In this document: positions 33,903 through 34,970 of the stretch, in pieces | Position numbering within the stretch: the first letter of the stretch is position 1 | Layout: each line of letters begins with the position of its first letter | Assembly (NCBI GenBank): GCA_028687915.1 | Contig: JAQTZF010000001.1 | Location: forward strand, 1,966-65,965 | Reading direction: 5' to 3' | Source: Candidatus Daviesbacteria bacterium | Lineage (GTDB): Bacteria > Patescibacteriota > Microgenomatia > Daviesbacterales > UBA10151 | DNA: 64,000 bases | Program-made: the position numbers and the translations under genes | Notes under the pieces: model-generated | Seen by the model: only the letters and a program-made list of their open reading frames with translations | Database searches by the model: none | What the model was told of the DNA's origin: nothing

Positions 33903-34213
33903 GCTGTCATTATTTGTCTACAATTACTTGTAGGATCAGACTATACCTTCACCCTGCTTTGCAGGGGCTAGCCTTTTATCCAAGTTTCAAAACCTTGAAT
34001 CCGATCTTTCGATCAAGTCGTTACGGGGTACGTTCATGTAAACTACGTTCGTGTAAACCAAACCGTAATAAACTGAATGTACTTCCCTCGGTGTTGTCCA
34101 TCATTACTGATTAGGAGTTCACCGATTTTAGCTAGTATTTTTTCAAAAAGACTTTTTATATTAAGTTCTAACAGAGCTACAGAATTACTCCTGCCGCACC
34201 CCAATGTATTAAG
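33903..34213 (-). other. Putative ORF-less group I intron in the 23S gene at the L2500-equivalent site
   Basis: A 311-nt AT-rich insert separates ...GGCACCU from CGAUGUCGGCUC. Removing it restores the E. coli PTC sequence GGCACCUCGAUGUCGG exactly. The 5' exon ends in U and the insert ends in G, as in group I introns. No ORF longer than 75 aa. Confidence 0.5.
34029..34058. repeat. Two tandem copies of the 15-nt unit TACGTTCRTGTAAAC (inside the L2500 intron)
   Basis: TACGTTCATGTAAAC followed by TACGTTCGTGTAAAC. Confidence 0.7.
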
Positions 34214-34842
34214 GTGCCGAACGATACCGTCCTTGTGGACTGTTGGGTATCACTAGCCTGTTATCCCCGGGGTAGCTTTTATCCGATAAGCCTACTCCCT
34301 CCCACGAGGAAAGTAGGGATCACTAAAGCCTGCTTTCGCACCTGCTCGACTTGTAGGTCTTGCAGTCAAGCACACTGTATACTTTTGCGCTTAAATCTCC
34401 GTTGCCATTGGAGATAAGTGTACCTTTGCACTCCTCCGTTACTTTTTTGGAGGAAACCGCCCCAGTTAAACTGCCCGCCAGACCTTGTTACGGTGCCGGA
34501 TTACGGCTACCGCTAGAGATTTAAAAATCTAAAAAAGAGGTGTTTCATTGTCGCCGAAGCTCCCTCCTACTCTACATAAATAAATTTTCAAATCAGGGCC
34601 AAGCTACAGTAAAGCTCCACGGGGTCTTTTTGTCCAAGTATGGGAAGGCCGCATCTTCACAGCCACTGCAATTTCGCCGAGTCTATCCTCAAGACAGTTC
34701 CTAAGTCGTTCTACCTTTCGTGCGGGTCTGAACTCCATTTTAAAACTGTCATTCTAAATAAATTTAGAAATCTTACATTTGTTTTTATGATTTAATGATT
34801 TTTAAATCCTCTACGTCGCCATAGAGATCGGACTATATCTTG

Positions 34843-34865
34843 TACGTTCATGTAAACTGAACGTA
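34843..34865. repeat. Hairpin repeat TACGTTCA-TGTAAAC-TGAACGTA (in the domain-IV intron)
   Basis: 8-bp perfect inverted repeat with a 7-nt loop. Confidence 0.7.
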
Positions 34866-34947
34866 CTCCAACGTGTAGTCTCTGAGGGTTTTTTGATATA
34901 AATATCAAAATCTTCCCTGCTGATTGACTCCACTAACAGATTGTCAC

Positions 34948-34970
34948 TACGTTTATGTAAACTAAACGTA
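34948..34970. repeat. Hairpin repeat variant TACGTTTA-TGTAAAC-TAAACGTA (in the domain-IV intron)
   Basis: A C>T change in the 5' arm is matched by G>A in the 3' arm, a compensatory pair. Confidence 0.7.

Follow-up and report, generated by a model that had tools for sequence, protein, structure and literature searches.

A minute palindromic hairpin at RNA helix tips in Daviesbacteria, probably a mobile DNA element of Microgenomates

We analysed a 64-kb window (the whole stretch of DNA considered here), which is part of a 1.10-Mb chromosome contig of a Candidatus Daviesbacteria bacterium (Microgenomates, within the Patescibacteria or candidate phyla radiation, CPR). Its rRNA transcripts carry all six of the window's copies of a hairpin of 22-23 bp, TACGTTCA-(6-7 nt)-TGAACGTA, in which 8-bp inverted arms enclose an asymmetric centre with the consensus GTTTACA. 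We consider it likely that this hairpin is a miniature palindromic mobile DNA element, spread through Microgenomates and lodged in non-coding DNA and at the tips of peripheral RNA helices. A first-pass annotation, made from the window alone, had left the choice between a protein recognition site and a small mobile palindromic element. The latter is favoured by duplicated target sites, by a locus seen both filled and empty, by the nesting of one copy in another and by patchiness of occurrence.

Results

Hairpin copies in the window

The copies occupy five sites, two of them in the first and one in the second of two group I introns of the 23S rRNA gene, one within the 16S rRNA and one in its leader:

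34843..34865, minus strand: copy forming the whole P8 stem-loop of intron 1, RNA UACGUUCA-GUUUACA-UGAACGUA (exact match; cmscan, RF00028)
34948..34970, minus strand: copy of the T-A variant at the tip of the intron 1 P5 extension, RNA UACGUUUA-GUUUACA-UAAACGUA (exact match, cmscan, fold)
34029..34081, minus strand: nested pair of copies, P6 of intron 2 (sequence, relaxed search, cmscan, minimum-free-energy (MFE) fold)
44331..44352, minus strand: copy in place of 16S helix h9 (equivalent to E. coli 184-193), loop GUCAAA (exact match, fold)
44741..44762, minus strand: copy in the 16S 5' leader, loop GUUACA (exact match)

The pattern TACGTTYA-N5-8-TRAACGTA has four exact matches in the 64 kb, compared with 0.00 expected from 100 dinucleotide-preserving shuffles. 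A relaxed search of the window (up to 3 mismatches, loops of 3-44 nt) gave no further convincing copy, and a 7-kb contig reached through an open reading frame (ORF) at the window edge holds none. The repeated hairpin seen in the first-pass annotation is thus real, with both units of intron 1 matching exactly where they had been placed, as is the C>T/G>A double change that distinguishes the copy at 34948. The two copies on the 16S side are also present, at coordinates that needed correction by 10 nt (44331-44352 for 44341-44362) and by 1 nt (44741-44762 for 44740-44761). Rfam matches bear out the host contexts that had been described (two 23S introns, the 16S and its leader), and the copy assigned to 16S V2 constitutes helix h9. 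In the leader, a promoter-like site precedes the copy by about 100 nt, and the 16S processing stem follows on its 3' side.

The copies in intron 2 had been described as two tandem half-units at 34029-34058. The repeat sequence is there, but the structure is really a nested composite that extends over 34029-34081. The arms of the outer copy (34074-34081 and 34029-34036, with one A.C mismatch) enclose an inner copy (34044-34067) lodged in the outer copy's GUUUACA loop, giving, in RNA sense, UACAUUCA-GUUUAU-(UACGGUUUG-GUUUACA-CGAACGUA)-GUUUAC-A-UGAACGUA. The flanks of the inner copy, again in RNA sense, are GTTTAT (34068-34073) and GTTTAC (34038-34043), a 6-bp duplication of the outer copy's loop, and the MFE fold reproduces the nesting.

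Chance, or independent convergence on a stable hairpin, can be given only a negligible probability. Terminal hairpins of RNAs are selected for stability, and the closest relative of the window has one short GNRA-capped tip, CTCGTAAGAG, at two sites. Against this stand the 0.00 matches expected in the window, the occurrence of the same 22-23-mer, loop included, in more than 100 loci of other genomes, and the A-U-rich stem with a 7-nt loop, which is not especially stable (the MFE fold of the P8 copy reaches just -12.4 kcal/mol).

The closest relative has other hairpins at all five sites

The five sites can be compared with those of the closest relative. Loci designated L plus a number are stretches from other genomes; a GAPDH search gave L125-L131, and the closest relative is represented by L121 and L125 (GAPDH 88% identical). 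If the hairpin tips are set aside, the leader, 16S 5' region and intron 1 core of this relative match those of the window at about 98-100% identity; with tips and end gaps counted, 92% of the columns in the leader and 16S 5' alignment are identical. No copy with up to 2 mismatches was found in 21 kb of the relative spanning the entire 16S and 23S, and all five sites hold different, unrelated hairpins, mostly short and GNRA-capped:

16S h9 (L121): CUC-GUAA-GAG, flanks identical to those of the window
leader site (L121): an unrelated 34-nt hairpin in an otherwise nearly identical leader
intron 1 P5 tip (L125): 6-nt CGUAAG, flanks otherwise identical
intron 1 P8 (L125): UCCCGAGCAAUCGGGG
intron 2 P6 and P8: long hairpins of tandem TCTGATT-like heptads (L125:17090-17380), heptads that are absent from the window intron

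Conservation of the stem in related genomes, which the first-pass annotation had looked to, is therefore not found at any of the five window sites in the closest relative. At h9 the direction of change can be read from more distant sequences. Since another Daviesbacterium, L131 (AUC-GCGA-GAU, with flanks conserved but diverged), and E. coli (GUC-GCAA-GAC) share a minimal GNRA-capped h9, the hairpin there is the derived state.

The same comparison separates the hairpin from the introns that carry it. Both window introns match the catalytic core model of group I introns (RF00028), and the suggestion that the hairpin had seeded these inserts finds no support, as they are complete group I introns that the relative has without it. 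Some relatives of intron 1 have the hairpin at P6 or P8 or both; others have it at neither. The element decorates the peripheral tips of the introns and did not found them.

The tips of the closest relative have some regularity of their own. An identical 10-mer, CTCGTAAGAG, is present at its 16S h9 (L121:11840-11850) and its intron 1 P5 tip, with CCCGTAAGGG at P6, and the relative thus has its own recurrent mini-hairpin, C(GUAA)G. We considered these GNRA tips as footprints of excision and found no convincing derivation of them from the hairpin. The window in turn has a separate perfect palindrome outside the hairpin family, which shares its tip-swap pattern and may belong to a second family of tip-swapping palindromes:

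34881..34900, minus strand: TTTTGATATAAATATCAAAA, the intron 1 P6 tip, where the relative has CCCGUAAGGG (sequence)

Target-site duplications, filled and empty sites

To place the window copies in a wider context, one genome per species from 185,579 species was scanned with the pattern TACGTTYAGT-N3-4-ATRAACGTA. The scan gave at least 118 loci, and the counts below refer to the 124 copies among the matches listed. An exact direct repeat abutting the hairpin is 0-2 nt long in 94 copies, 6 nt in 29 and 7 nt in one, while a control with a displaced 3' flank gave zero repeats of 5 nt or more. When one differing base is allowed, the 6-nt flanks agree in 43 of 123 copies, compared with 0.3 expected. 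The duplicated 6-mers are specific to the locus (GTCAAC, GTTGAC, GTAAAC, GTCCAC, TCTTGA, TCCTGA, CCAGGG), and the favoured targets, GTNNAC and TCNNGA, have complementary outer dinucleotides. It is for this reason that the stem, whose arms are perfect over 8 bp, is nearly always longer than the element itself, being lengthened by its flanks by 1-2 bp in 116 of the 124 copies.

Sites with and without the hairpin can be compared directly in a repeat of about 170 nt. Filled copies of this repeat read ...GATCTTGA[hairpin]TCTTGAGG..., with the junction ATCTTGA[hairpin]TCTTGA. Empty copies, which occur both in that genome and in one of the Levyibacteriota, have ...ATCTTGAGG..., with ATCTTGA once. Filled and empty states differ by 28 nt, that is, the 22 nt of the hairpin plus 6 nt. 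The nested copy of the window provides a second such comparison, its empty state being the plain GTTTACA loop. The ~170-nt repeat is itself palindromic (TTGAG.CTAGACGCT.GA..CTAGAAG...TCTAAC...CATCAA); it has many copies in the metagenome-assembled genome (MAG) CAZTFV01 and is also present in a Levyibacteriota MAG, filled in L052, L073, L057, L112 and L116 and empty at L116:6640-6790, L102:6215-6340 and L050:3610-3750. It is probably a family in its own right, resembling the miniature inverted-repeat transposable elements (MITEs), that hosts a hairpin insertion.

Promoters are a recurrent target. The GTTGAC target overlaps the -35 promoter box and, on our reading of the flanks, at least 8 independent copies have the arrangement GTTGAC[hairpin]GTTGACA-N16-18-TAnnnT. 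These copies look like insertions into the -35 box in which the duplication restored the promoter. They also speak for an improbable alternative, in which the hairpin is a DNA-level protein site copied around the genome, either the core site of a tyrosine recombinase or the operator of a dimeric repressor, and the 6-bp repeats are crossover (overlap) or promoter modules. Its architecture of 8(+1-2)-6/7-8(+1-2) would suit such a site, as would the good -35/-10 promoters abutting those 8 or more independent copies and the location of two copies at promoters of toxin-antitoxin operons in L079. However, neither an operator nor a recombination site would be expected to make up P3 of RNase P RNA, 16S h9 or an intron P8. 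The flanking 6-mers also vary by locus and empty sites hold a single copy of them, as a target duplication would have it, and the orthologous promoter and leader DNA of the closest relative lacks the site.

The L079 locus (4953-5972) has further features. Its two hairpin copies have identical flanks with GTCAAC duplications and stand at the promoters of neighbouring PIN-type toxin-antitoxin operons, MazE-PIN and HTH-PIN, with a T-A variant copy 75 nt from the first hairpin. The gene between the two copies was considered as a transposase and rejected, the region being a pair of PIN toxin-antitoxin operons.

Distribution and host sites in other genomes

Approximately 108 of the loci listed come from Patescibacteria, mostly from Microgenomates MAGs, and the lineages represented are Davies-, Levy-, Woese-, Curtiss-, Gottesman-, Ames-, Collier- and Blackburnbacteria, together with MAGs that are probably mislabelled. 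The latter account for many of the matches. They are TPA 'binchicken' MAGs titled 'uncultured Gammaproteobacteria', 'Pseudomonadales' or 'Bdellovibrionales' (L002-L116, e.g. L010 and L083), and their titles are probably wrong, because named Patescibacteria MAGs share their RNase P and rRNA flanks (e.g. L083 vs L114). We estimate about 35 chance matches over the whole collection; about 10 of the matches listed look like chance, coming from unrelated taxa and lying mostly inside ORFs. A phage origin of the hairpin was rejected, with 1 match in 2.9 million viral contigs.

The restriction to rRNA and intron contexts that the first-pass annotation raised holds in the window and not beyond it, 71 of the 124 copies in other genomes being intergenic. 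Nor does the motif occur at random frequency with coding sequences included, the outcome that would have spoken against a hairpin of any consequence: the expectation in the window is 0.00, and ORF maps place 109 of the 124 copies outside ORFs of at least 100 aa, in densely coding genomes. About half of the 15 copies inside such ORFs are non-CPR chance matches. In one case, L075:1238-2320, the hairpin is central in a larger composite palindrome (...AGATTGCCACAG[hairpin]CCTCGTAATGAC) that is read through in frame within a 360-aa ORF (...VIASEAKQSSTLTNKIATVRSVDMNVPRNDK...); the outer palindrome surrounds the hairpin in L019 and L104 as well.

Structured RNAs make up much of the remainder, with 14 copies in 23S rRNA, 4 in 16S rRNA, 3 in rRNA flanks, 10 in RNase P RNA and 3 in cobalamin riboswitches, while 7 copies adjoin tRNAs. 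Wherever the structure of the RNA gene can be assigned, the copy is the tip of a peripheral helix. Two genomes have it in 23S rRNA in place of H25 (E. coli 540-555) and two in place of H63 (1701-1749); a label of H45 for a further 23S site was dropped, as mapping to E. coli puts it near 1112-1118. Helix h9 of 16S is replaced in the window, L089 and L067, and the closing pair differs in each. In L083, L114 and L117 the hairpin makes up the whole P3 helix of RNase P RNA, as Rfam alignments show, and at L041:5358-5485 it is a peripheral stem of the cobalamin riboswitch aptamer (RF00174), with the same flanks in the other two riboswitch copies, L060 and L096.

How patchy this occupancy is can be seen in RNase P RNA, which is essential and single-copy: as an unbiased test, one metagenome scan supplied 56 such RNAs with exactly the same P1/P2 and P4 flanks. 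The P3 hairpin is intact in 2, flipped with a mismatch in 1 and decayed in about 3, so that about 10% of these flank-identical RNAs have it when the decayed and flipped ones are included. The remaining P3 helices are unrelated hairpins, P3 being extremely variable.

Discussion

How the element would move, and what weighs against it

The hairpin inserts as DNA and duplicates 6 bp of its target. Copies persist only where 28-29 extra bases are harmless, namely in intergenic DNA, in promoters and in the loops or tips of peripheral RNA helices, where a self-pairing insert leaves the RNA fold undisturbed. The window copies are recent, lineage-specific acquisitions, absent from the nearest relative. 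On the favoured reading, they would act just as helix tips, with no sequence-specific role in rRNA processing or splicing. The moving enzyme would be encoded elsewhere in the genome.

Several observations weigh against this reading. In RNA genes the element usually swaps out an entire small terminal hairpin, base to base, with no duplication. A flanking duplication is absent at five of the six window copies, at the RNase P P3 copies and at many rRNA copies, and such duplication-free copies replace the whole terminal hairpin exactly, where simple cut-and-fill insertion predicts otherwise. Fifteen of the duplication-bearing copies (TCTTGA) derive from one composite repeat and are not independent events. 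Pfam searches of ORFs of at least 150 aa found no transposase, recombinase or HUH nuclease in the 64-kb window, and no partner gene was found anywhere, which leaves transposition a putative mechanism. A cognate autonomous element, with the same ends and a transposase, was not noticed in the 8-kb loci, which were given no dedicated test for one. Two further points come from the hairpin sequence itself. Double, pair-preserving changes in the stem are far commoner than independent single changes predict, and the loops of copies in RNA genes are oriented 31:10 towards GU..A in RNA sense (p = 0.0015), as they are in 6 of 6 window copies.

With respect to the first of these sequence features, CPR copies at the stem pair that the pattern leaves free are C/G in 105 cases, C/A in 3, T/G in 3 and T/A in 3, and it is the excess of double changes over the prediction from single ones that places the pairing under some constraint. 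The first-pass annotation had taken the double change in the window as evidence of selection on the structure. The constraint on pairing stands, but the argument is weak, as the T-A variant may be a propagating sub-family. The three T/A copies, from three other genomes, are mutually identical and all intergenic, and their 6-bp flanking repeats are exact at two and agree in 5 of 6 bases at the third. From these sequences the T/A copies appear to be such a sub-family, and because identical T/A copies with flanking repeats occur elsewhere, the T-A copy of the window can be read as an inserted variant instead of an in-place compensatory change. Paired changes of the arms would thus arise through propagating sub-families, or equally through arm-to-arm templated correction of palindromes.

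Either insertion by a strand-specific mechanism or mild RNA-level selection could account for the orientation bias. Loop sequences vary among copies, and in 10 of the 41 RNA-embedded copies of other genomes the loop is reversed relative to the RNA. It is also flipped at orthologous sites (H63 in L034 vs L087; P8 in L056 vs L087 and L084), which argues against loop-specific RNA recognition.

These features bear directly on the possibility that the hairpin is a functional RNA module, recognised in rRNA, leader, introns and RNase P RNA by a single protein, be it a processing nuclease, a maturase, a chaperone or a ribosomal protein. Archaeal L7Ae, which binds K-turns in many RNAs, offers a parallel. 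The hairpin does occur in several unrelated structured RNAs, always at a helix tip; its 8-bp stem is identical in sequence across distant genera; pair-preserving variants are over-represented; and the loops have a 3:1 bias of orientation in RNA, complete in the window. Nevertheless, we regard such a module as distinctly improbable. Every orthologous site in the closest relative is without the hairpin despite nearly identical RNA around it, only about a tenth of flank-identical RNase P RNAs have it even with decayed copies included, and the loop is reversed in a quarter of the copies embedded in RNA. Many copies, moreover, lie in promoters or in DNA that is not transcribed and have 6-bp target duplications, and the identity of the stem across genera is due in part to ascertainment, as the scan required exact matches. 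The absence from the closest relative, the loop reversals and the intergenic copies with duplications likewise tell against the specific protein recognition sites proposed in the first-pass annotation, for a processing nuclease, an intron maturase or a homing factor.

The exact exchange of terminal hairpins could come about by three routes: insertion followed by loss of the old stem, homologous recombination that imports remodelled patches, or structure-directed integration. Taken as a full explanation, the second of these would have hairpin-bearing rRNA and intron patches gained from related strains by homologous recombination, and the element itself may then be ancient and immobile. Exact replacement of whole hairpins with no duplication, between flanks identical to those of the relative, is what it would lead one to see, and the mobile GC clusters of yeast mitochondria are documented to exchange by way of conserved flanks (PMC4478555). 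We nonetheless consider import on its own very improbable. It requires five separate short conversion tracts in one operon, each limited to a helix tip, and leaves unexplained both the nested copy with its own duplication and the locus-specific duplications elsewhere. Import also shifts the question of origin, and it complements an explanation by a mobile element more than it competes with it.

The third route leads to a bolder proposal, which seems to us rather unlikely. The hairpin would be an active, ultra-small transposon consisting of two 8-bp ends back to back and served by a dedicated enzyme, with structure-directed swapping of terminal hairpins and an orientation bias that reflects partial domestication as a generic helix cap. 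If this were true, it would be a living mechanism for the growth of rRNA and ribozymes by helix insertion (accretion). To our knowledge, an active element of 22-23 bp would be the smallest target-duplicating mobile DNA.

Relation to known repeat families

The literature that we searched contains no description of this hairpin, the sequence appears in no paper there, and none connects Patescibacteria and miniature inverted repeats in any relevant manner. Several known systems nonetheless resemble it in part. Like the repetitive extragenic palindromes (REPs) and REPINs mobilised by REP-associated tyrosine transposases (RAYTs), the hairpin is a short imperfect palindrome that is dispersed and mostly extragenic, with sub-families and some composites (PMC3116915, PMC3733652). 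REPs and REPINs, of 20-40 nt, are found in Enterobacteria, Pseudomonas and Stenotrophomonas (PMC3116915, PMC3733652), and REPs have a conserved GTAG or CGTC tetranucleotide at one end (PMC3733652). The hairpin instead starts with TACG and ends with CGTA, without such a tag, and the bases just outside it vary by locus. REPs are thought to move without target duplication, by the mechanism of IS200/IS605, unlike the hairpin with its exact 6-bp duplication at 29 of 124 copies, and we know of no REPs that serve as helices of rRNA or RNase P RNA. No RAYT (Y1 HUH transposase) was matched by Pfam among window ORFs of at least 150 aa, a search that covers 64 kb of the 1.1-Mb genome.

With bacterial MITEs (Correia of Neisseria, RUP and the Rickettsia palindromic elements, RPE), the hairpin shares inverted ends, target duplication, a non-autonomous character and formation of a hairpin when transcribed. 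Of the features that define MITEs, it has terminal inverted repeats, a duplication of fixed length, and presence or absence between relatives. MITEs are typically 50-500 bp long with an internal region, whereas the hairpin has only its two 8-bp arms and a centre of 6-7 nt within 22-23 bp. It is far shorter than any MITE known to us, and we know of no cognate full-length insertion sequence. RPEs invade functional genes in reduced genomes, and the in-frame composite of L075 is a situation of that kind.

The closest in behaviour are mobile hairpins of organelles, namely the GC clusters of yeast mitochondria (PMC4478555), the repetitive hairpin elements of sponges (PMC2800124), the palindromic repeats of green algae (PMC4524435) and the double-hairpin elements of Allomyces. 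Short flanking repeats, patchiness, sites in intergenic DNA, introns and variable regions of rRNA, nesting, and the lack of an identified enzyme are common to both. The present hairpin differs in residing on the chromosome of cellular bacteria across a large clade, in flanking repeats of 6 nt rather than the 2-3 nt (AG, ACT) of GC clusters, and in composition, organellar hairpins being usually G+C-rich in A+T-rich genomes and this one not. Minute inversions of hairpin loops are known from the non-coding spacers of chloroplasts. As there, loops flip while arms stay constant, a side process that does not explain a repeat family.

In CPR bacteria themselves, the window introns belong to the known rRNA insertions and introns (PMC11270868; tRNA introns, PMC13011429), and stem-loop tops or bases are the positions noted for the rRNA insertions (PMC11270868). 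These two papers cover introns, homing-endonuclease ORFs and longer insertions, and neither mentions a hairpin, palindrome or repeat family (PMC11270868, PMC13011429). The hairpin is a separate and much smaller layer upon CPR introns and rRNA.

What is notable about the element is its size, its 6-bp duplication, and the way in which, throughout a large bacterial clade, it comes to cap helices of essential RNAs. If it is mobile, the essential structured RNAs of CPR bacteria (16S, 23S, RNase P RNA, riboswitches and self-splicing introns) have been remodelled at their helix tips by selfish DNA, as was previously documented mainly in organelles. This would be a concrete and testable source for lineage-specific rRNA insertions and for the growth of RNA by helix insertion. 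In addition, an element with a 6-bp duplication needs an enzyme, and in this clade, from which very few mobile elements are known, phylogenetic profiling could uncover a new transposase or integrase. There are practical consequences for annotation, in that identical hairpins in rRNA variable regions, introns and leaders should not be taken as conserved processing signals, and they can confound phylogeny based on 16S V2, probe design and covariation analysis.

Host genes and genomic surroundings

All rRNA genes of the window are on the minus strand. They and the features associated with them are:

32053-32169, minus strand: 5S rRNA (Rfam)
33520-37153, minus strand: 23S rRNA with two group I introns that have no ORF (Rfam)
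33904..34211, minus strand: 23S group I intron 2, 308 nt, no ORF, host of the nested pair (RF00028, 57-59 bits; boundaries by exon alignment)
34735..35110, minus strand: 23S group I intron 1, 376 nt, no ORF, host of two copies (RF00028, 68.9 bits; exon alignment)
43046-44516, minus strand: 16S rRNA (Rfam)
44658..44679, minus strand: 5' strand of the 16S processing stem, partner at 42881-42902 (inverted repeat I22)
44857..44885, minus strand: promoter-like site TTGACA-17-TAAAAT upstream of the 16S leader (11/12 consensus matches)

Exon alignment places intron 1 between E. coli 1952 and 1953 (L1951/52) and intron 2 after the U2500 equivalent. Both have the terminal G; in intron 1 the aligned 5' exon ends in A, so its 5' boundary is uncertain by a base. 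The introns of the window have no ORF, and several relatives have LAGLIDADG genes inside introns of their 16S and 23S. In another Daviesbacteria relative, a gene of the 23S_rRNA_IVP (intervening-sequence protein) family lies directly downstream of the 23S (L129:16892-17242).

Inverted repeat I22, of 22 nt with 86% complementarity, brackets the 16S. A second inverted repeat, I1, of 40 nt, had raised the prospect of long-range pairing between leader and V2; it was rejected, since two copies that are palindromes produce such a repeat by themselves and the further complementarity in their flanks is weak. Lone TACGTTCA arms at 37414-37421 and 38012-38019 could be chance occurrences or unresolvable remnants of the hairpin; the former, which in RNA sense precedes tRNA-Ala by 4 nt, is without a counterpart in the closest relative.

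The rRNA operon is split, with about 5.6 kb (37410-43045) separating the 16S from tRNA-Ala and the 23S. This interval holds genes for phosphoglycerate kinase (PGK), GAPDH and hypothetical proteins, as well as tRNA-Ile(GAT) and tRNA-Cys (42293-42460) on the strand opposite to the rRNAs, and the gene order of the split operon is kept in the closest relative (L121/L125). A radical-SAM gene (32255-33175, plus strand) lies between the 3' end of the 23S and the 5S, again on the opposite strand; a homologue search found no orthologue of it in the closest relative, and its best other match is 55% identical.

Elsewhere the window consists of tightly packed long ORFs, including pilins with N-terminal methylation motifs, GAPDH, PGK and ribosomal protein S1. 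An organellar origin, which the low G+C content and the 23S introns had suggested, was rejected on account of these ORFs, the pilins and glycolytic genes among them, and of database names that assign the proteins to Candidatus Daviesbacteria. Two giant proteins of secreted type, of 1409 and 1597 aa with six Laminin_G_3 domains each, are encoded at 162-9616 (plus strand), and a pilin-like protein bearing a Laminin_G_3 domain is encoded at 30793-31944 (minus strand). These are typical surface proteins of CPR bacteria.

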